Part shown: positions 5,809-22,073 of the stretch, in pieces
Layout: each line of letters starts with the position of its first letter
Position numbering within the stretch: position 1 is the first letter of the stretch
NCBI GenBank assembly: GCA_964636675.1
Contig: CAZWUO010000003.1
Location: 1 to 61,048 of the forward strand
Length of the DNA: 61,048 nucleotides
Reading direction: 5' to 3'
Origin: an uncultured Ectothiorhodospiraceae bacterium
Lineage (GTDB): Bacteria; Pseudomonadota; Gammaproteobacteria; S012-40
Program-made: the position numbers and the translations under genes
The notes under the pieces: generated by a model
What the model was told of the DNA's origin: nothing
What the model saw: only the letters and a program-made list of their open reading frames with translations
Database searches by the model: none

Positions 5809-6204
5809 TTAGGGCGTGTCGCCAGGAATCACTTGAGCATAATTCAGAGGAAATTTTAGTACGGTTTCTTCCTGCTTGCTATTTCGAACAAAAATATTCA
5901 ATACATCCTTCTGCGGATCAACTACCCGTAACGCGGTACGATAAACACCCATATTGCCATCTTCGATGGCCTGCTTCCATGAGCCAGCGTCACCTAATCG
6001 CAACTTCACGAGTAAATCCCAAGCGGGCTTGCGCCCATCGCGATTAGCTATTATGAGAAACTCAATCATCCCTGGCTTCGGCACCGGCGGCCGCGCTTCC
6101 ACTCTGAACGTCAGACCTTGCCATTCTTGAGCCGGGGTTGTTGGAACCTCTCCGGTACAAGAAATCATTAAACTGACCAGAACTATAATACTAACTCTAA
6201 ACAT
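5809..6204 (-). CDS. Putative lipoprotein, FixH/YtkA-like beta-sandwich
   Basis: Lipobox-like MISC; beta-rich with GVY motif; last gene of the ccoG unit. Confidence 0.55.
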   Translation of the reverse strand: MFRVSIIVLVSLMISCTGEVPTTPAQEWQGLTFRVEARPPVPKPGMIEFLIIANRDGRKPAWDLLVKLRLGDAGSWKQAIEDGNMGVYRTALRVVDPQKDVLNIFVRNSKQEETVLKFPLNYAQVIPGDTP

Positions 6205-6512
6205 TAGGAATCGCTCGCATTTGAGATCAAGTAACTCAGCAATTCGTTTTTATCTTTCTCAGGAATTGCATCCAGTGAATTCATAATTCGATGATTATTC
6301 ATTCGGTATATAACGTTAGACCATTCTAAAGATTTATGCTCGTAGGGCTTTGGTGGGGCATGACAATCATTACAATACTTCATCAACATTGGGTGATTAT
6401 TCGCTTTTAGTTGAGCGAGGTTTTCGCTCATGGTTTTTTCCGTATCTGTGCACGCTGAATTCAAGCCTAATAAAACGATGACAAATAACAAATACCCATT
6501 ATTTTTCTGCAC
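6204..6512 (-). CDS. Monohaem c-type cytochrome, probably a lipoprotein
   Basis: CNDCH followed by W..VIYRM; N-terminal hydrophobic stretch with NSAC. Confidence 0.8.
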   Translation of the reverse strand: MQKNNGYLLFVIVLLGLNSACTDTEKTMSENLAQLKANNHPMLMKYCNDCHAPPKPYEHKSLEWSNVIYRMNNHRIMNSLDAIPEKDKNELLSYLISNASDS

Positions 6513-8632: not shown

Positions 8633-11266
8633 TTAATTCACGTGTTGTGGATTCAGCGATTCATACAACGATTTGTAATACCTCGATTGCGTCAAATTAC
8701 CCTCTGTCTCAGCTATTTTCCCTAAGTCTTTTATCGCCAAATAATGATCTGGCCTAATTTTTAGGATCTCTAAAAGTGCATTCTTCGGAGAAAGGCCTTG
8801 CTCCTGCGCTTGACTTTTAGACGCATACATCTGGTCAGCAATACCAAACCCCAGCCAACGATCTTGATTATTTAGCATATAACCCTCGCGTAGCTTCTGA
8901 AACCCCTTATTAAACTCACCACGCAATGAATCAACCATGCCTCCTCCCCATAAATTTGTAGCCTTGAATGCGCTGACAAACTGCGCTAAGCCTTCTCCAG
9001 GAATAGCAAGCTCTCGCGCAATGTCTTGCTCTGCAGAACGCATCGAAAGAACATATAGAAACGTCGTCAAAATGTTAAATTTGCCATCATATTTCGATTG
9101 CGGAATTAGAAATTCAAGTTTAGGAGACCACTCTGACTGTACAAGAACGCCCTCATCTTCTATCTCTCCGATATAACGCCCTAGCCACGTCCAAATCCCC
9201 TCGCCACCCGTTTTGTCCATAATGGCTGAGTCATTGTTTGCAATCTGATGCGCTCTCATTGATGCATAAAAGGACATTTTAGCATTAGAACCCACTAGCG
9301 CGAGCCTAAACCCATCTAAAAACATAGCAGAGTGGGGGAATACACTTCTAAACGTACTCAAGACAATCTTCAACGACTCGACATCGTACTGATTCAGCGC
9401 CACCCATTGTACAAACAAACCCTCGCTACGCAGAATTCCTTTAATCCGTGCAAAATGTTCTACGGACAATAGTGCGCCCCTGCCAACCAAATCAGGATGA
9501 AACAAATCACCAATCACTACGTCGAATTTATCCTGAGTTAGCTTCGTATATCTTCTCGCATCGTCTTTAATGATTCTGATTTTTTCAGTCACATCAAGAT
9601 TAACTGAGGAAAAATAAGTCCCTGCCGCCGCGATTGCTCCAGCAGACAATTCCACCGCCGTTACACTAACTCCAGGAAAAGCCAGCGCACCCGACGCCGT
9701 TATGCCGGTTCCCAGGCCCAAAAACAAGACTTCTTTGGGCTCCCTGTGCAACAGAAGCGCAAGCCGGGCTTGATTTTTTTGCACAGTCACAGCCGTCGGC
9801 TCGGACGAAGCATCCATCCTTTGCAAATCAGAAAGCAAAAGCCGCTCACCTGAAGGCTTGTCTACGACACTGGTTAGTGAGACCGCATCTTCGTAATAAA
9901 AAATATCTTTAGCGTTAGCATATGCCTGAGGAAGCAGGCTGGAAACCGGCGGAAATCCCAGTATAAATAATCCCAGCAACAACACTGTCATGGAGGACAA
10001 CTGATACCATTTAGCCGAAACCCAGGTAAAACTTGAGAATATAACCACGAGTACAGCGATATATATAATGGCCACTGAACCAAATACAGGTAACAAAATA
10101 AATGTTGCAATCAATGCACCCAAGGCACCGCCAATCGAGTTTGCTCCGTAAAGCAAAACAGCGTCTTCTGAGCTACCTGATATATGCCGAATTAATACGG
10201 GAAACCATATTCCAAACAAGAAAGTAACCGGAAAAAATATTACCAACAGAATAAAAAATTGACTTAATATTGCCTCATTAAAACTTTGGAAATTCGCTGT
10301 CTCAGCCCAAGCAGAGACCAATGGAAGCAATAAGATGGAAAGCAAACCAAAAAATGCGATTAACAAAGGAATGACGGCCAATACCGCTTGCTTCTGAAAA
10401 AACCTATGCATAAACGCACCTACCCCAATACCCATAAGAAAAATGGCAAGAAGCATTGCTAATATATATTCAGTCCTTAATAACACCATTCCATAAAGCC
10501 GAACCCATGAAATCTGCAGCATCAAAGCCGCCAAACCTATAAATGCATACGCAATTAGGGAACTCTTTTTCACTGAGCTTGTTTCTTGATTTCTGCTCAC
10601 GGTATTTTCAGCTTGCGAACGCCCAACAAAAAAAGACAATACAAAGCATAACGCAGCAATAAGTAATCCTAATATGGCAATTAGGCGCGTGGAAACGATC
10701 CATCCAAAAACGGGCAATAGGTATATTGGAGTAATTGAACCAAGCACACCACCCAGGGTATTAATCCCATAAATTTGGCCAACCGAAATATTGAACGGCT
10801 TTAATACCTCGAGCAGCAACGCAAACGTTGAACCCATGGCAACTGCTGGAATAAATAGCAGAACAAAACAAATAAAAGATTCTAATAAGAAGAACGAACC
10901 CCAACTATTTTGCGCTGTATTTAAATAAACAAAATTTTCAATTTCTGGGATAAACTTGGGAAGTAGAAACGCAAAAATGGCGATGAAAGCCTCGAGTAAA
11001 GCAAACATTAGCAGCGGCGAAATTTTACGCCTTACTAAATATACACCCAAAAAGCCCCCGACCCCTAGGCCCGCCATAAACGCGGCTACCGTAATTGCTA
11101 CACCAAATATGTTTACCCCAAAAATAAGGGATAACATACGAACCCACAATATTTCGTATGCCAAAGAAGTAAAACCGGTAAAAAAATAAGCCGCCGCAAT
11201 TAGAAGCGCTGTAAATGCGAAAGGGGATTTACCTGAAACTTGCTCTCTGATTAGGCTTTCAGGCAT
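8633..11266 (-). CDS. Membrane-bound spermidine-synthase-like protein (multi-TM domain plus SAM-binding domain)
   Basis: LAYEILWVR and IYGINTLGG repeats in the TM region; LGLGTG, VEL, DDARRY, DVVIGDLFHP. Confidence 0.88.
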   Translation of the reverse strand: MPESLIREQVSGKSPFAFTALLIAAAYFFTGFTSLAYEILWVRMLSLIFGVNIFGVAITVAAFMAGLGVGGFLGVYLVRRKISPLLMFALLEAFIAIFAFLLPKFIPEIENFVYLNTAQNSWGSFFLLESFICFVLLFIPAVAMGSTFALLLEVLKPFNISVGQIYGINTLGGVLGSITPIYLLPVFGWIVSTRLIAILGLLIAALCFVLSFFVGRSQAENTVSRNQETSSVKKSSLIAYAFIGLAALMLQISWVRLYGMVLLRTEYILAMLLAIFLMGIGVGAFMHRFFQKQAVLAVIPLLIAFFGLLSILLLPLVSAWAETANFQSFNEAILSQFFILLVIFFPVTFLFGIWFPVLIRHISGSSEDAVLLYGANSIGGALGALIATFILLPVFGSVAIIYIAVLVVIFSSFTWVSAKWYQLSSMTVLLLGLFILGFPPVSSLLPQAYANAKDIFYYEDAVSLTSVVDKPSGERLLLSDLQRMDASSEPTAVTVQKNQARLALLLHREPKEVLFLGLGTGITASGALAFPGVSVTAVELSAGAIAAAGTYFSSVNLDVTEKIRIIKDDARRYTKLTQDKFDVVIGDLFHPDLVGRGALLSVEHFARIKGILRSEGLFVQWVALNQYDVESLKIVLSTFRSVFPHSAMFLDGFRLALVGSNAKMSFYASMRAHQIANNDSAIMDKTGGEGIWTWLGRYIGEIEDEGVLVQSEWSPKLEFLIPQSKYDGKFNILTTFLYVLSMRSAEQDIARELAIPGEGLAQFVSAFKATNLWGGGMVDSLRGEFNKGFQKLREGYMLNNQDRWLGFGIADQMYASKSQAQEQGLSPKNALLEILKIRPDHYLAIKDLGKIAETEGNLTQSRYYKSLYESLNPQHVN

Positions 11267-12953: not shown

Positions 12954-13481
12954 TCATAAACTTTCTTTGCGAACATCTGTTTTTGGCGCAACCTCTTTGT
13001 CTGCAGCGTCAACTTGATACCGTATGTGAATATCTGACTTTGCACTGCGCCCGTATGTTTTTTTAATAACATATTCGCCGACGATGCCGCCACCCGCACA
13101 TGCTTCAACACATACAATCACCACCAAAATCCAATAACCAATGGGAAGAACTGACACACCTTCAGTTAAAAAACGCATGTCATAAGACGCGATATACTCG
13201 GGGATTAAAATAATTAACGGTGAAAAATTAGCCAACATTTTCCCGCCCAGCCCATAAATTGCAGACACCACCATTCCCGCCACAAAGGGAACAACAATAA
13301 TGGTAACTATCCACATTGGCCTGAACGTATGCAATAAACCAAAATAGAGTTCCAGATCAACACCGGTTAAGGCTTTTCCCACATAAAATACCAGCGCACC
13401 AGCAAACACTGCAACCAATGCCCACACTACATCGATCAATTTAATCTTACTGGATAATTTCAGCATCATCAGTGTAATCAT
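12954..13481 (-). CDS. Multi-TM membrane protein of unknown function
   Basis: Hydrophobic ORF tightly packed in the operon; exact start uncertain. Confidence 0.7.
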   Translation of the reverse strand: MITLMMLKLSSKIKLIDVVWALVAVFAGALVFYVGKALTGVDLELYFGLLHTFRPMWIVTIIVVPFVAGMVVSAIYGLGGKMLANFSPLIILIPEYIASYDMRFLTEGVSVLPIGYWILVVIVCVEACAGGGIVGEYVIKKTYGRSAKSDIHIRYQVDAADKEVAPKTDVRKESL

Positions 13482-13953
13482 TCCCCGTTAATTTTTCATA
13501 ACGCTTCTTCTTAGCATCGGGTAAATACCAATCTTTGACTTTTAACGTAGCAAGATACCTCGCAATGGTTTTACGCTCATCATCACTTAAATGCGCATAG
13601 GAAGGCATTCTATATTGAGGCTTTAATCTTGTTGCTAACACATCTTGTGGCGTCTCTTGAGAAAGATAGTTAAATAGCCATGGCTCGTCTCTAAACTCTC
13701 CAACCCCATCGAGAGGTGGAGCGGGAACCGCTTTGTCTAAATCTCTAATTCCCCACAGAAAATGGCACTCTCTACAATTATAAACGCGAATAATCTCTCC
13801 GGCTTTTGCAGTCAATTCGGGACTAGCATCGGAAATAAATGGAATATCCATCTCCACTTCATTCACTTCTTCAGCGTTTTTAAACTTTAACACTGCAACG
13901 ATCACCACGCTTATAACCATCGCTACAGCAATGCCTTTCTCACCGGCCCTCAT
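13447..13953 (-). CDS. Membrane-anchored monohaem cytochrome c (CcoO/NorC-like)
   Basis: N-terminal TM, CRECH, PPLDGVG...WL, axial Met in YRMPSY. Confidence 0.85.
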   Translation of the reverse strand: MRAGEKGIAVAMVISVVIVAVLKFKNAEEVNEVEMDIPFISDASPELTAKAGEIIRVYNCRECHFLWGIRDLDKAVPAPPLDGVGEFRDEPWLFNYLSQETPQDVLATRLKPQYRMPSYAHLSDDERKTIARYLATLKVKDWYLPDAKKKRYEKLTGNDYTDDAEIIQ

Positions 13954-15559: not shown

Positions 15560-16540
15560 TTATCTCAAGCTCGTCATGATCCAGTCAACCAAAGCACGAA
15601 CCTGAGAATCAGGTGCAGGCTCTGGAACCTCTGGTGGATATATTGAGCCACCTTTTAAGTACGTCATATATTCAGCGCGCCATTTAGAATAATCAATTGA
15701 TGCACCGCTTGCATCTCGAGCATCAGAAGGACCTTTACCTATTGGCGCCCAAAGATAATCAAATCGAGGCATAATTGAATTCGGCTGAACTAACCGAGGA
15801 TTGAAAAAATGCATATACATCCATTCTCGCGATGAATTGCGTGAAGCTACGTGCAAAATATCCGGTGCTTTACGATCCGAACCAAATGCTGTAGGCATTT
15901 CACCATTAAAATCACCTAGATATGGCGGCGTACCAAAATACTGCCAATCTTGGGTTTCTTCTGGTAACAATGTATGACACCACCAGCAACCCTCTGTGAT
16001 ATATATAGTCTTGCCTGCCCCAACAAATCGCTTAGCATCATCACCGACAGAACTTAGGACTTTATCAACCGTCCAACCACGTACCGCCGTTGAGTTTTCG
16101 ACATAATCCAGCTCTTCGCCGTTGAATTCACCTTTAACAATAGTGAATACTATGCCGTCTCCCGGTTTAGCATCGTTAATTTTGCCAACATTGACGCTTA
16201 ACTCTTCCACCCCCAAACCAAGCTGATCAGTATGGTTTACGCCAGGTGAAAATGGAGTGCCTGGCTTATATACATAAGCTCGTATAGGTGGATCAATCGC
16301 TGCACCTGTCGCAGGATCTTTATCCAAAATTACCGTCACAGGCTTGCCATCACCACGAACTAAAGGGTCTTCGTAACTAAACCCTATAAGGCGACCAGCA
16401 GAAAGCTGTTTGTCCAAACCAACCCAAGTAGAAACACCAGACCGGAAGTCAAAACTTGGGAAGAACAGTGTAATACTCATTGAAAAGCCCATCATCAAAC
16501 CGATGCCGGCTGTACCAAATTTATGTTGTCTAAAACCCAC
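15560..16540 (-). CDS. ccoO: cbb3-type cytochrome c oxidase subunit II, enlarged
   Basis: GKTIYITEGCWWCHT, FGSDRKAPDI, HFFNPRLVQPNSIMP; GTG start with GGAGGAG RBS. Confidence 0.9.
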   Translation of the reverse strand: MGFRQHKFGTAGIGLMMGFSMSITLFFPSFDFRSGVSTWVGLDKQLSAGRLIGFSYEDPLVRGDGKPVTVILDKDPATGAAIDPPIRAYVYKPGTPFSPGVNHTDQLGLGVEELSVNVGKINDAKPGDGIVFTIVKGEFNGEELDYVENSTAVRGWTVDKVLSSVGDDAKRFVGAGKTIYITEGCWWCHTLLPEETQDWQYFGTPPYLGDFNGEMPTAFGSDRKAPDILHVASRNSSREWMYMHFFNPRLVQPNSIMPRFDYLWAPIGKGPSDARDASGASIDYSKWRAEYMTYLKGGSIYPPEVPEPAPDSQVRALVDWIMTSLR

Positions 16541-16634: not shown

Positions 16635-18044
16635 TTACCGCTCGTAAGCCATTTCGTGAGCATAACGTCCGTCAGGTACAATAGTACCTTCACGAGCTGT
16701 CATCCACATATTGTATAACCAAATTGTGTTACCTGTAAAAACCATGGTTCCACCAATCCAACGTGCAATCATATAAGGATGCTCAGCGATAACGACATCA
16801 ATATATGGAACTTCGTAGATTTTACCAGCGCCTTGAATCAATCCGGCAATGGTCATGGATATCCAGTAAATACAGAATCCCACAATAACAAACCAGTAAT
16901 GTAGATTTGCTAAGGCTAATGAATATAGCTTACGACGTAGCATTGCTTGTAAACCGAAATACACCGCAGCAATCTCGAGAAATGTAGACATTCCTAACAG
17001 CGCAAGATGCGCATGCGCAACAATCCAACCAGTACCATGTACATACCAATTGATTGCACGAGTTTGCTGGAAGCCACCTTGCATATTCAATGGAATCGCA
17101 AGCAGAACACCTGTTACAGAGAATTTAATTTCAATATTCTCTACAAACAGACTCCACCTGCCTTTCATTGTTAACAAGATGTTAGCGATAAAAGCAATAG
17201 CTGGGATAAGAATCAATACACCTTCTACCGAAGCAAAAGACTTCAACCACTCTGGCAGCGGAGCTGACATTAAGTGATGCGAAGCTGGTGTTGAGTAGAA
17301 AGCAATGATTGACCAGAAATGCAAATGACCAATTCTATGCGAATAAAGGGGATTACCCGTTATTTTTGGAATTGTGTAATAAGCAATACCCGCAGCGACC
17401 GGCGTGATCCACAGACCAAGCAGATTGTGCGCGTGCCAAAAGGTCAAATAAGCTTCTGTTAAACCAGTTAGATTGAATATCTCTGGTGATTGACCAATTG
17501 TAACGGTGATTATGGTCAAAAATATCATCGAACCAAAAAACCAGTTCGTAATATATATACCTTGGGTTTTACGATGAGCAATTGTCATCCAAACATTAAT
17601 TCCCAAGGGCGTTAAAACACCAAAAATAATCACTAAGTCGATAGGCCAAATCAAGTCGCTATATTCACGACCCGAAGTAATCCCCATCCACAATAGTAAA
17701 AGCCCAAGAGCCAATCCAATGTTCCACAAGAAAACATTCCATAAGCCCAACTTTTCTGACCAAAGTTTGGTATTTCCTAACGACGGCGTCATGTACATCA
17801 TCGTCATCGCAAAAGCCATGGAAATCCAACCAAGAATTACCGCCAGAACATGCACTTGACGCATATGGCCAAACGCAAATAATTCCGTACCAGTAACCCA
17901 GTCAGGAAAAGCAAGTTTTGCAGCGTTAAAAGAGCCTAAGCCCGTTCCCACTACAAACCAAAAAATAGATGAATATCCAAAGAATATGGTAGCCGACCCA
18001 ACCGGTATATCCTCATTCTTTGCAAATAATAATTTTAGCAGCAT
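16635..18044 (-). CDS. ccoN: cbb3-type (family C) haem-copper oxidase subunit I, divergent type
   Basis: All six ligand His (RQVHV, HAHN, SHHL, AHAH), helix-VII Tyr in HFWSIIAFY, GREYSD. Confidence 0.93.
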   Translation of the reverse strand: MLLKLLFAKNEDIPVGSATIFFGYSSIFWFVVGTGLGSFNAAKLAFPDWVTGTELFAFGHMRQVHVLAVILGWISMAFAMTMMYMTPSLGNTKLWSEKLGLWNVFLWNIGLALGLLLLWMGITSGREYSDLIWPIDLVIIFGVLTPLGINVWMTIAHRKTQGIYITNWFFGSMIFLTIITVTIGQSPEIFNLTGLTEAYLTFWHAHNLLGLWITPVAAGIAYYTIPKITGNPLYSHRIGHLHFWSIIAFYSTPASHHLMSAPLPEWLKSFASVEGVLILIPAIAFIANILLTMKGRWSLFVENIEIKFSVTGVLLAIPLNMQGGFQQTRAINWYVHGTGWIVAHAHLALLGMSTFLEIAAVYFGLQAMLRRKLYSLALANLHYWFVIVGFCIYWISMTIAGLIQGAGKIYEVPYIDVVIAEHPYMIARWIGGTMVFTGNTIWLYNMWMTAREGTIVPDGRYAHEMAYER

Positions 18045-18756: not shown

Positions 18757-18957
18757 ATGCAAAAAAGAGAAATCGCTATTTATGTTTTTGTCGGCTTAAG
18801 TTCGCTCTTAGTTGTCTCATATACAGTGCATATGTTTATTGGTGGACTCGTAAGTGAAGAGCTGGAATCACAAATTACAGTGGGCATAACGATCGTTTGG
18901 GCCTGCCTATTAATAGCAGCAGGAATTGACATCAGCAAGCGCAGACGGCACAACTAA
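18757..18957 (+). CDS. Small two-TM membrane protein
   Basis: Two hydrophobic helices, YTVHMFIGG, basic tail; purine-rich RBS. Confidence 0.7.
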   Translation: MQKREIAIYVFVGLSSLLVVSYTVHMFIGGLVSEELESQITVGITIVWACLLIAAGIDISKRRRHN

Positions 18958-19132: not shown

Positions 19133-19588
19133 CTATCTAAACACTCGCAACAATGCTTTTGCTTCACTAAACACCCCGTCATTAACAAACTGACCCTTGT
19201 GAAACACCTGCTGCTGCTTCCTACCCTCCCCATCTAATCCAGATAAACCGATACTTTTGCCTCCGGTATCTGAGAAAAATCTAACGTTCTTAATCATCTC
19301 AATCGACTCACCACTTTTTAGCTCAAGACGAACCACCTTGTTAGAGACATCCAACGCAATTGCAGAAGATGGCAAAATCATAAGCCGAGTTTTGGCTATA
19401 CGATTGAATGCTATTAAGAAAATCATGGTTGTCATAAAAACCAATAAATACGTAATATTTTGCTCACCATTAAACCAGAACTGAGAAGCAATAGAGATAA
19501 GCGCAATCAGCGTCGGAATGTATAAGAGCAAATCCCACTTTACTCCCTTTATGTCTTGCACCAATTCGAATCTTGTACTTTTTGACAT
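19133..19588 (-). CDS. Two-TM protein with soluble C-terminal domain, unknown function
   Basis: ORF coupled to the upstream operon. Confidence 0.7.
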   Translation of the reverse strand: MSKSTRFELVQDIKGVKWDLLLYIPTLIALISIASQFWFNGEQNITYLLVFMTTMIFLIAFNRIAKTRLMILPSSAIALDVSNKVVRLELKSGESIEMIKNVRFFSDTGGKSIGLSGLDGEGRKQQQVFHKGQFVNDGVFSEAKALLRVFR

Positions 19589-19595
19589 AATCTGC

Positions 19596-20099
19596 CTATC
19601 CTTTTTTTTCCGCCAACACTTGTCTAAGCACTCCGTCTAACTCACCATACAACATGCGTCCCGCTCGGCGAAATACAACTTCACCCTCAGTGTTTATTAT
19701 AAAAGTCCACGGATCACCTTTTACCCGATAAGAAATAAATGCCTCAGGATTCATATACTGATCCATATGAAGAAAAACAACGTCTTTCTCATACTTATCA
19801 ATCATCGCCTTTAACATTTGCAACTGCTTGTCACAAACAGTGCAATGCCCAGGAGTAGCAAACTCAATCACCATTGTCTTTTTCAATGCCAGCGCATCAT
19901 CGACTGAATATTGATACATTCGTGCATCAGGATGGCGATAACTTGTTAACCTGCTTAAGTCACCTCCGACATCATCAATGTACTTGGTTCGCAAGCTTGG
20001 AGCTTCCACACCTAGACCCAAACGACCTGCCGGATCCTCCAAACAACTCGAAAGGAGACTTACTACACCTATAAACAGAGCAAACTTAACGATCCTCAT
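19596..20099 (-). CDS. Thioredoxin-fold lipoprotein
   Basis: Start MRIVKF; lipobox LSSC; EFATPGHCTVC (CxxC) and cis-Pro-like GDPWT. Confidence 0.8.
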   Translation of the reverse strand: MRIVKFALFIGVVSLLSSCLEDPAGRLGLGVEAPSLRTKYIDDVGGDLSRLTSYRHPDARMYQYSVDDALALKKTMVIEFATPGHCTVCDKQLQMLKAMIDKYEKDVVFLHMDQYMNPEAFISYRVKGDPWTFIINTEGEVVFRRAGRMLYGELDGVLRQVLAEKKG

Positions 20100-20622
20100 A
20101 ACCTTTTTCCCAATTTGAGCACGTTTTAAATAAATTATACGCCCATATAAAATTTGCGAGCAACACCAATGTACCAAATATACCCATAATGGCTAACAAG
20201 GGTTTTACTATTACCTCAACTTCTTGAGGTGAAGACGTTACACTTGCCATACCCCCCATTGTTCCCGCCATTACAAAAAACACAACCATTCCTATCACAC
20301 CAACATTATGCACCCAAAAATGAACCTTAACCAAAGTGAGACTATAAATAGGCCTCTTAGTTAGGCGCGGCACAACATAGTAAACAGCGGCGAAAATAGC
20401 CATTTCCACCCAACCAAGTAAATTTATATGAGTGTGACCGCGCACTATTAAATCCCCGTGAAGGCGATGATCAACGAAATAACGAAACTCCGCTATTCCG
20501 CCCATTAAGGCTCCCCAGGAAAACCCTATAATACTGTAGATAATACACGCATAAACAAACCACAAAATATACTTTCGAAATTCAACTTCATTTTCATGCA
20601 ACCATGGCGCAGACATTTGCAA
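20086..20622 (-). CDS. Four-TM single-repeat haem-copper-oxidase homologue
   Basis: GHTHINLLGW, AAVYYVVP...IYS...VHFW, NFIWAYNLFKT align with helices IX-XII of the neighbouring CcoN. Confidence 0.85.
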   Translation of the reverse strand: MQMSAPWLHENEVEFRKYILWFVYACIIYSIIGFSWGALMGGIAEFRYFVDHRLHGDLIVRGHTHINLLGWVEMAIFAAVYYVVPRLTKRPIYSLTLVKVHFWVHNVGVIGMVVFFVMAGTMGGMASVTSSPQEVEVIVKPLLAIMGIFGTLVLLANFIWAYNLFKTCSNWEKGYEDR

Positions 20623-20634
20623 CTACCCTTCTAA

Positions 20635-21231
20635 TTATTTAACTGTCGATTCAACTTCACCCTCTTCAGGTGCTTTTTCTCTAATGTCCTTGTACTTTTC
20701 AGTCCATTCTGCGGGTGCCCACATATTTACCATATTATCAATAAATGCAGAATCTTCGGGGGGCGGTACTTTCGCGACAGAAGACCCAGGGTCGGCCCGA
20801 AGCTCTGACAAAAATACGACAATGGCATGACGATCTTCAGCGCTCATCTCACTGGCATATGCCGCCTCTTTTGGCCGCAACCCATGATCAAGCGTTATCC
20901 CGCCTTCGTAAACCGACTCTGGATGCAGTAAGAATGTTGCCAACCATTCTTGCGAACGCTTCGAACCTATCCCATCAAGAGATAAACCCATACTCGTCCC
21001 TGTTCTCAACGCCCGATGACAAGAATTACAACGTGCCTCACGATATATTTTTGACCCTTCGGCACCTAATGGCGAAAAATCAAAATGCGTAGTTTGCGAA
21101 AACATTGGCTTGTCCGAAGTTAACCTCACGGTTTCTAAGCCTACATACGCGATTAGCGCTAATAAAAAAAAGATACTAAAAACTATAAAAAGAATTTTTT
21201 CACCTGATTTTAAAGATTGTTTTTTTTTCAT
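20635..21231 (-). CDS. Membrane-anchored monohaem cytochrome c (NorC/CcoO-like)
   Basis: N-terminal TM, GSKIYREARCNSCH, LDGIGSKRSQEWL. Confidence 0.85.
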   Translation of the reverse strand: MKKKQSLKSGEKILFIVFSIFFLLALIAYVGLETVRLTSDKPMFSQTTHFDFSPLGAEGSKIYREARCNSCHRALRTGTSMGLSLDGIGSKRSQEWLATFLLHPESVYEGGITLDHGLRPKEAAYASEMSAEDRHAIVVFLSELRADPGSSVAKVPPPEDSAFIDNMVNMWAPAEWTEKYKDIREKAPEEGEVESTVK

Positions 21232-21311: not shown

Positions 21312-22073
21312 CTAGTAACCAGCTTCATAGGGCTGCAAAATATTGCCCGTAGAATATGCCGATGCATTAGTTAAGTACGCCGCTGCATTATTAATATCTT
21401 CGTCAGACATATTTTTAGCAACTTTTTGCATTTGACTCATTGGGTCATTTGTTCTAGACCCATCGCGCCACTTTTTCAACTGATTAACGAGGTACACATA
21501 CTTTTGAAGCCCAATTTGCGGATAAATGGGTGGTGCACCACGTCCATTATACCCATGACAAGCTCTGCAAGAAGGTACAGGCTTGGCTCGATTGCCTTGA
21601 CCATACTCTACCAGAGTTTTGCCCTTGTGACTTAAACCAACTTCAACGCCTTGCTCTTTGAGGGCCTTTAAATCAGATCCCTTATATTCATCAACTTTGC
21701 CTGTTGCCAAAGTTGAAAGATAAAAGGCAACGTCATTACGATCCTGCGCAGACAAATTCTTCGCATTATCGTTCATAACAAACATGGTAGTGTCCAGACG
21801 CTTATCAGTTGCATAATCTTCGAGCTGCTTACGCAGAAAAATCCAAAACTGACCCGCGATACGTGGCGTCCCTAATGCATCATCACCCGTGCCATCATTT
21901 CCATGACACGATGAACACGCGGGAACCGAACCCTTACCGTTCTCATATATACTCTTACCATTCGCAACATCGCCACTACCTTTTGGGTATTGCGGCGAAG
22001 ACATTGCTAATGTAGGTACTACTGCCCCTACTACGAAAGCGGCGACAGAAATAGCGGTGACTAACCGTTTCAT
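21312..22073 (-). CDS. Dihaem cytochrome c4-family protein
   Basis: Signal peptide, CSSCH and CRACH, PRIAGQ / YPQIGLQ...YLVNQL, axial Met residues. Confidence 0.92.
   Translation of the reverse strand: MKRLVTAISVAAFVVGAVVPTLAMSSPQYPKGSGDVANGKSIYENGKGSVPACSSCHGNDGTGDDALGTPRIAGQFWIFLRKQLEDYATDKRLDTTMFVMNDNAKNLSAQDRNDVAFYLSTLATGKVDEYKGSDLKALKEQGVEVGLSHKGKTLVEYGQGNRAKPVPSCRACHGYNGRGAPPIYPQIGLQKYVYLVNQLKKWRDGSRTNDPMSQMQKVAKNMSDEDINNAAAYLTNASAYSTGNILQPYEAGY

Follow-up and report, generated by a model that had tools for sequence, protein, structure and literature searches.

The question raised by this locus is what a bacterium gains from a free-standing third of a haem-copper oxidase (HCO) subunit I. 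The gene concerned lies at positions 20086–20616 on the minus strand of a 61,048-nt stretch of contig CAZWUO010000003.1 (the window, i.e., the whole stretch of DNA that was analysed and to which all coordinates refer unless stated otherwise), which belongs to an uncultured Ectothiorhodospiraceae bacterium (assembly GCA_964636675.1, genome 98.7% complete). Open reading frame (ORF) detection and Pfam COX1 revealed a protein of 176 aa with four transmembrane helices (TM1–TM4; hereafter the 4-TM protein), a single-repeat member of the HCO superfamily. A first-pass annotation had placed it, together with a cytochrome, at 20086–21231, and ORF detection gave three consecutive frames on the minus strand (20086–20622, 20635–21231, and 21312–22073). 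The first of these yields 178 aa if read from a TTG at 20622. Since a Shine-Dalgarno-like gaaggg box lies 8–9 nt ahead of the ATG at 20616 and the database copy of the protein (P0001) has 176 aa, the real gene is most likely 20086–20616 with an ATG start. Based on the evidence given below, we propose with moderate confidence that its product forms a homotrimeric, copper-free membrane cytochrome with bis-His haems b, which is fed by its own cytochrome c and is part of a cbb3 system.

Pfam COX1 (PF00115) matched the 4-TM protein with E=1.5e-18 and 67.3 bits (cut-off 34.8), aligning residues 10–151 to positions 299–435 of the 436-position profile and thus to its last third only. The NCBIfam ccoN model TIGR00780 scored 53.1 bits over positions 337–460 of 474, its cut-off being 583.15. 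A search against PDB sequences returned CcoN chains at the top (6xkw_n, 7.1e-10; 3mk7_A, 4.8e-09, query 60–125 on chain 342–408), with the GHTH of the 4-TM protein aligned to the GHVH of these chains, and the protein also holds VHFW. These matches bear out the first-pass description of a protein that corresponds to helices IX–XII of CcoN and carries both motifs. Subunit I of the HCOs has twelve helices and three units in a single chain, while the 4-TM protein has 176–178 aa and one unit. On these alignments, the gene is an independent unit of four transmembrane helices (TMHs) most like TMHs 9–12 of HCO and nitric oxide reductase (NOR), as are the single-unit HCO homologues (HCOH) reportedly defined in 2014.

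A homologue search over 5.8 billion proteins at E≤0.001 resulted in 760 homologues, the best 120 of which served for the motif and length counts. These were 169–185 aa long (median 175) and 71–100% identical, and R[GA]HxH[IV]NLLGW as well as GWVEM, which contains a Glu in TM2, were kept in all of them (120/120 each). HFWxHN was present in 116 and HFY replaced HFW in the remaining 4, giving 120/120 for HF[WY]xHN; H[RK]xHG was found in 114/120. Constancy of length and of the HxH histidines had been named as a check on the first-pass reading, and both were observed. Comparison with the nearest related locus revealed a ratio of nonsynonymous to synonymous substitution rates (dN/dS) of 0.039 (dN 0.052; dS, at 1.32, close to saturation), and the neighbouring CcoN gave 0.024 in the same comparison. 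For more distant loci dS was saturated, and some values for the thioredoxin-like neighbour were frame artefacts and were ignored. No stops interrupted the gene in any of the 16 genomes of the window's order (16/16). The 80 best of 382 related loci, to which the counts out of 80 or 54 loci below refer, came from metagenome-assembled genomes (MAGs) of Gammaproteobacteria, from Candidatus Tenderia, and from Zetaproteobacteria/Mariprofundus. The 4-TM gene is therefore no fragment: it encodes one repeat unit that stands alone, is conserved, and is under selection.

TM2 of the 4-TM protein carries the conserved Glu and, at its periplasmic end, HxH; HFWxHN is found where TM3 reaches the cytoplasm. 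Positive loops, as read from the sequence, are the N-terminus, the TM2–TM3 loop, and the C-terminus; therefore, the termini and the TM2–TM3 loop are predicted to be cytoplasmic, and HxH as well as the haem domain of the neighbouring cytochrome periplasmic.

The relationship to CcoN extends to all of its three repeats. The 4-TM protein aligned to three stretches of CcoN 3mk7_A (12–149, 207–246, and 342–408), and a hidden Markov model (HMM) of single-unit proteins detected all three repeats of true CcoNs. Applied to the full-length CcoN of the window (469 aa, CcoN469), it gave 2.4e-8, 7.6e-10, and 1.6e-21, making the threefold repeat visible by sequence alone. Regarding the histidines, the first His of the HxH of the 4-TM protein aligned with the helix II His of 3mk7_A, the helix VI His207 was positioned one residue past its second His, and its VHFW His aligned with His243 of helix VII. 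In cbb3, these CcoN residues bind the low-spin haem, ligate CuB, and belong to a proton path, respectively. The CuB/FeB ligands (helix VI His, helix VII HH) have no equivalent in the 4-TM protein. CcoN469 has HH 13 residues after HFW, while this position reads VVFF in the 4-TM protein, and among the best 120 homologues HH occurred in 2, away from the helix VII position. CuB ligands are thus absent, and because of this absence the protein is unlikely to act as an HCO-type reductase of O2 or NO. This weakens the minimal oxidoreductase for O2 or NO suggested by the first-pass annotation, as does the histidine pattern, which predicts six-coordinate bis-His haems.

For complex prediction, three copies of the 4-TM protein were submitted together with three haems and an alignment of our own in three runs, with controls alongside. 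The trimer reached ipSAE values of 0.91, 0.91, and 0.91, while the best control had 0.00; at least 96% of the contacts agreed between runs, and the predicted local distance difference test score (pLDDT) of the partners was at least 91. Among proteins solved as pairs of one chain, 20 of 30 attain this mark, as does 1 of 23 known as single chains; this calibration is rough here owing to our own alignment and the ligand. In the prediction, each interface is formed by TM4 and TM2 of one copy and by TM1 and TM2 of its neighbour, with the TM2 helices in contact at the axis, an arrangement that is also that of subunit I.

Relatives in which three such units are fused were also identified. An exhaustive search of representative sequences with the 4-TM protein gave 613 matches at E≤0.001, including many proteins of 390–530 aa with three matched stretches. 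These, including the proteins of 390–430 aa, consist of three tandem units, each with HxH(L/I)xLLGW, and the C-terminal third of Pfam COX1 matched them three times. Such three-unit 12-TM proteins were P0131, P0138, P0141–P0143, P0158, P0161, P0168, and P0169, with loci L084–L091. The model of P0142 (pLDDT 92.3, predicted TM-score 0.92) was most similar to CcoN 8smr_E (TM-score 0.83, E 3e-11); further cbb3, ba3, NOR, and bo3 subunits ranked next. The homotrimer of the first-pass annotation, which could rebuild a 12-TM haem protein, is therefore supported in silico by the ipSAE values against the controls, by the existence of fused three-unit relatives, and by the CcoN-like fold predicted for one of them.

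The three-unit proteins (P0131, L089, L090, and P0141–P0143) share the unit and the HxH in each repeat with the 4-TM protein and differ from it in being fused and in their neighbours, which are SCO1/SenC, hemerythrin-PAS, or iron-sulfur (Fe-S) assembly proteins. Proteins of the P0131 type from Proteobacteria MAGs are at most 40% identical to the 4-TM query and have SCO1/SenC as the gene directly after them (2.7e-30 and 2.3e-28 at L089 and L090). The P0142 type (P0141, P0142, P0143) was found at five loci in Hydrothermarchaeales and Methanobacteriota MAGs beside genes for an Fe-S assembly protein, a CGGC protein, and a DUF438-hemerythrin-PAS protein. A membrane-anchored cytochrome c adjoins the 4-TM gene and is lacking next to the three-unit genes, L090 having a divergent soluble-type one. 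Single units of 135–138 aa in Nitrospirota lie beside CRP/FNR regulators. A further family with some likeness is Pfam DUF2871 (PF11070), which covered nearly its whole profile on the 4-TM protein with E=0.0022 and 18.7 bits and thus below its cut-off of 27.4. It is a precomputed match on some close 4-TM homologues, and DUF2871 clusters were present among the atlas neighbours.

The history of the units was addressed with two trees, which agree: FastTree was applied to 112 units (98 columns) and IQ-TREE in its quick mode to 64 of these, picked by name per group after the FastTree had been seen. Repeats 1, 2, and 3 of CcoN form separate starred clades (97, 95, and 96), and the 4-TM family forms a starred clade of its own (96) outside that of CcoN repeat 3. 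Since the three repeats of P0138 (99*) and likewise those of the archaeal three-unit family (97*) cluster with each other, the trees suggest repeated, independent triplications, concerted evolution being the alternative. In an approximately unbiased (AU) test, a joint clade of the 4-TM family and CcoN repeat 3 was not rejected (p 0.525), and deep nodes were poorly resolved. An ancient origin of the family from the C-terminal third of a subunit I is thus neither shown nor excluded by these trees.

The 4-TM gene is embedded in a conserved unit of five genes on the minus strand. The first is a gene for a dihaem cytochrome c4-type protein (21312–22073, 253 aa), whose two CxxCH motifs and two Cytochrom_C stretches confirm the c4 that the first-pass annotation had placed ahead of the monohaem cytochrome. 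It was present upstream in 64/80 loci, absences being mostly those of Zetaproteobacteria. Next comes a membrane-anchored monohaem class I cytochrome c (20635–21231, 198 aa, CNSCH), which precedes the 4-TM gene directly and on the same strand in 80/80 loci, its stop lying 12–18 nt ahead of the start of the 4-TM gene. Directly downstream of the 4-TM gene, again in 80/80 loci and with a median offset of −9 nt between the high-scoring segment pairs, is a gene for a thioredoxin-fold lipoprotein with CTVC (19596–20099; Pfam Thioredoxin 1e-5, 25.9 bits). It probably starts with the ATG at 20099 (MRIVKF...LLSSC lipobox) and thereby overlaps the stop of the 4-TM gene by 14 nt. The last gene (19133–19588) encodes a membrane protein of 151 aa (hyp151) that matched no Pfam family above the cut-off and followed the thioredoxin-fold gene in 77/80 loci.

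The monohaem cytochrome displays an N-terminal transmembrane helix, CNSCH, and a conserved C-terminal segment (PPxGxSxFID...WAP..W..KY.D.R), with C68, C71, H72, M81, D115, and H116 being invariant. Pfam Cytochrom_C matched it with 4.1e-8, and its AlphaFold model had a pLDDT of 77.8. The first-pass label 'NorC/CcoO-like' holds for the architecture, i.e., an N-terminal membrane anchor and one haem c domain, and membership of either family was not demonstrable. FixO (PF02433) gave E=3.2e-4 and 20.7 bits (cut-off 29.6) over residues 40–73 only, a match to 34 N-terminal residues, and NF011055 gave 20.5 bits at a cut-off of 218. Among PDB sequences the NorC chain had E=0.94, and Foldseek of the model against the PDB yielded no match at E≤0.001, CcoO chains reaching a TM-score of 0.28 with E>0.1. 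Assignment to the CcoO or NorC family was therefore rejected as unsupported. The cytochrome is presumed to be the electron donor and partner of the 4-TM protein.

Downstream of this unit lie the genes of a cbb3-type oxidase on the same strand, namely a full-length CcoN-like subunit I (CcoN469, 16635–18044; COX1 2.9e-72 over positions 3–436 of 436) and a CcoO-like monohaem subunit (15560–16540, 326 aa; FixO 8.3e-16 over residues 175–264 only). The latter carries an N-terminal extension of roughly 170 aa before the FixO domain. The gap of about 630 bp between the two units holds a small ORF on the plus strand (18757–18957) encoding 66 aa with two hydrophobic helices, for which tblastn found a match in 69/80 loci. 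Given this conserved opposite-strand ORF, separate transcription of the 4-TM unit and ccoNO is probable. Genes for FixS/CcoS, for a CcoG-like ferredoxin, and for another cytochrome c are also part of the wider cluster. Two more monohaem cytochromes c are encoded on the minus strand of the same conserved cluster, one of 168 aa at 13447–13953 beside FixS and one of 102 aa with CNDCH at 6204–6512 beside the CcoG-like protein.

In the whole genome, COX1 matched three proteins, namely CcoN469, the 4-TM protein, and a second single unit, which leaves CcoN469 as the sole full-length HCO found. The second single unit has 171 aa with AHAHINVIGG and is located on contig C63 (L083:1399-1914, minus strand), followed by genes for a 211-aa Bact_hydrolase-like protein and a thioredoxin. 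Such a 4-TM paralogue was present in most genomes of the order.

Taken as a copper-free cytochrome, the 4-TM protein would work as follows. Three copies would assemble head-to-tail into a ring of twelve helices like that of subunit I, with TM2, the equivalent of helix X, in the centre. The two histidines of the HxH would face different sides of TM2; therefore, each pocket between protomers would receive the first His of one copy and the second His of its neighbour. In real oxidases, the low-spin haem is held by the helix II His and the second His of helix X, which is the same pairing as in the proposed trimer pocket. The resulting membrane cytochrome would be symmetric and free of copper and would bind as many as three haems b, each six-coordinate and bis-His, close to the periplasmic face. 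The anchored monohaem cytochrome c, which is predicted to face the same side, would pass electrons to the trimer and would itself be supplied by the dihaem c4; maturation would probably involve the thioredoxin-fold lipoprotein encoded by the overlapping gene. The module would be a transcription unit of its own beside the sole full-length oxidase, an unusual cbb3, and would accept or hold electrons and not reduce O2 or NO.

Several points weigh against this proposal. The third pocket of real oxidases is empty, which bears on the fit of three haems. The trimer score may reflect likeness to the solved pseudo-trimers of subunit I and would then speak for compatibility and not for assembly, and the paralogue elsewhere in the genome makes heterotrimers possible. 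The conserved Glu of TM2 and the histidines of HFWxHN hint at proton handling, which pure electron holding would not need. The close linkage to CcoN and CcoO suits an accessory role equally well. Finally, expression in a relative, Candidatus Tenderia electrophaga, counts in favour of the proposal in that Tel_00410 and the orthologous gene Tel_00415 reach log counts per million of 9.3 and 8.7, and against it in that transcripts of the latter were about 30-fold below those of the adjacent CcoN (13.7; Table S1, PMC5371394).

The main rival to a trimeric cytochrome is a protein that serves the neighbouring cbb3 oxidase in an accessory role, in its assembly, or as an additional subunit, a possibility that we regard as real and still rather unlikely and that includes the haem/Cu delivery factor of the first-pass annotation. 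The 4-TM protein would then act with the thioredoxin-fold lipoprotein and hyp151 in keeping haem b and/or copper or passing them on to CcoN, or would dock on it, and would form no independent complex. This would fit the position of a CcoN469-type gene, which was found downstream, usually at a distance of about 3 kb, in 52 of the 54 loci whose sequence extended 4 kb or more in that direction; in most genomes of the order, it shared a contig with the 4-TM gene. It would also fit the maturation genes of the CcoS/FixS and CcoG-like kind in the wider cluster, the thioredoxin-type neighbour, the SCO1/SenC copper chaperone next to the bacterial three-unit relatives (L089, L090), and the low expression in Tenderia relative to CcoN. 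However, an assembly factor would have no obvious need for the dedicated cytochrome c and c4 in the unit, a conserved gene on the opposite strand separates the 4-TM unit from that of the cbb3 oxidase, and no similarity could be detected between the window's thioredoxin-like lipoprotein and the SCO1/SenC protein encoded beside the three-unit genes. Moreover, Nitrospirota and archaeal relatives have other neighbours (CRP/FNR, hemerythrin-PAS, and Fe-S assembly proteins, respectively), and of the remaining two of the 54 loci, one has its CcoN469-type gene upstream, and the other, L063, has none within 6 kb or anywhere in the 12.5 kb fetched.

A catalytic, copper-free relative of the HCOs appears improbable. 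Here, the trimer together with the cytochrome c would reduce NO, O2, or another oxidant, or would transfer electrons between cytochrome c and quinone, with protons moving via the Glu of TM2 and the His of TM3. Some conserved family-specific residues are suggestive (GWVEM and HF[WY]xHN in all of the best 120 homologues, H[RK]xHG in 114), and the HFW His is aligned with His243 of CcoN helix VII. The genome carries a gene for a protein with a cytochrome c and a d1 beta-propeller (NirS- or NirN-like) at the start of contig C292 (L108:3-1523, plus strand), while none of the COX1 matches of the genome was a NorB-type HCO and no match to nirK was found at its 98.7% completeness. In addition, a paper that cites the 2014 description of HCO homologues links them, in the part available, to denitrification and detoxification, and the accessible text of a preprint on Tenderiales speaks of 'a sort of alternative complex IV' (10.1101/2022.05.06.490989). 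Against catalysis stand the lack of any CuB/FeB ligand equivalent, with the rare HH (2/120) away from the helix VII position, and the symmetry of the trimer, which predicts only six-coordinate bis-His haems that bind gases poorly; all haems would lie at one membrane depth, and no metal site is visible beside them. The cd1-type protein, for its part, sits at a contig end and is indistinguishable from NirN. Next to its gene is one for a polyamine aminopropyltransferase-like protein, and a fused gene of the major facilitator superfamily (MFS)/spermidine-synthase-like type was found within the window's oxidase cluster (8633–11266).

In its boldest form, the catalytic reading would make the protein with its anchored cytochrome c a working, copper-free, threefold-symmetric tri-haem enzyme, a living pre-triplication form of the HCOs with a respiratory reaction of its own in iron- or electrode-oxidising bacteria; we give this form little credence. 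The last alternative, a decaying or recently truncated ccoN fragment without a function of its own and with relaxed selection or variable length, might be read from the match to the last third of COX1 only and from the label 'cbb3-type cytochrome c oxidase subunit I' at NCBI and JGI, but it has practically no chance of being right and is already refuted by the conservation data, i.e., by the constant length (169–185 aa in 120/120), the dN/dS of 0.039, the stop-free gene in 16/16 genomes, the spread of the family over Gamma- and Zetaproteobacteria, and a starred family clade (96) outside the starred clade of 9/9 CcoN third repeats.

If the bis-His trimer is real, an abundant and easily expressed protein of 176 aa would serve as a model for how a 12-helix oxidase subunit arose from a 4-helix unit, and it would illustrate a path from a bis-His haem pocket to a haem-copper site. 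The 4-TM gene is a strictly conserved part of a respiratory cluster in neutrophilic iron oxidisers and electroautotrophs (Zetaproteobacteria, Tenderiales, and relatives), in which the electron path to oxygen has so far only been modelled. At present, the value of our analysis lies in consolidation and in added in silico support.

With regard to known systems, Pei, Li, Kinch and Grishin reportedly described in 2014 HCO homologues that consist of a single unit of four TMHs, are encoded by independent genes, and are most like TMHs 9–12 of HCO and NOR. The helix X histidines are said to be kept in them, and an assembly into homo- or heterotrimers with the fold of subunit I is said to have been proposed. 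The three-unit proteins of our search are probably among the HCO homologues described in that year. Another citing paper states that homotrimers of 4-TMH proteins resemble the HCO core, crediting Pei et al. (Protein Sci 2014;23:1220–1234), and the statement on denitrification and detoxification in the paper mentioned above is a summary of the same work. What may set the subfamily of the window apart from these HCOH proteins is a dedicated cytochrome c, a c4, and a thioredoxin-fold lipoprotein next to an unusual cbb3 oxidase. Compared to CcoN helices IX–XII (3mk7, 6xkw, 8smr, 9g6b), the 4-TM protein retains the helix X HxH as well as P...YS..L...HFW, but it has one unit instead of three and lacks the CuB ligands of helices VI and VII as well as the helix II partner.

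Another close system is that of Candidatus Tenderia electrophaga, whose 'truncated CcoN' (ALP51724.1/Tel_00415; 10.1101/2022.05.06.490989) is an orthologue of the 4-TM protein and belongs to 'Complex IV (1)' of the Tenderia metatranscriptome (PMC5371394). As far as the available text of the preprint goes, the gene list for Tenderiales runs from a dihaem cytochrome, a monohaem cytochrome, the truncated CcoN, and a thioredoxin over CcoN and CcoO to CcoG (10.1101/2022.05.06.490989), and the Tenderia papers also speak of 'partial cbb3 oxidases'. In the literature searched, most subscription journals being outside its scope, no treatment of the internal repeat or of a trimer was found, and 'truncated CcoN' appeared in one preprint only; the portions available of the Tenderia papers list genes and contain no structural or trimer argument. 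The window displays the same gene order as the Tenderia cassette (c4, cytochrome, 4-TM unit, and thioredoxin, then CcoN–CcoO downstream), and Candidatus Tenderia loci are among its 80 relatives. One difference is that the Tenderia cluster carries a further truncated CcoN at its far end, whereas none is present there in the window and the paralogue is located on another contig. Thus, the kind of protein, the cassette, and the idea of a trimer, the last reportedly in Pei et al. 2014, are already in print. To these, our analysis adds for this subfamily a trimer predicted in silico with controls, the mapping of its histidines, evidence for repeated triplication, and counts for selection and synteny.

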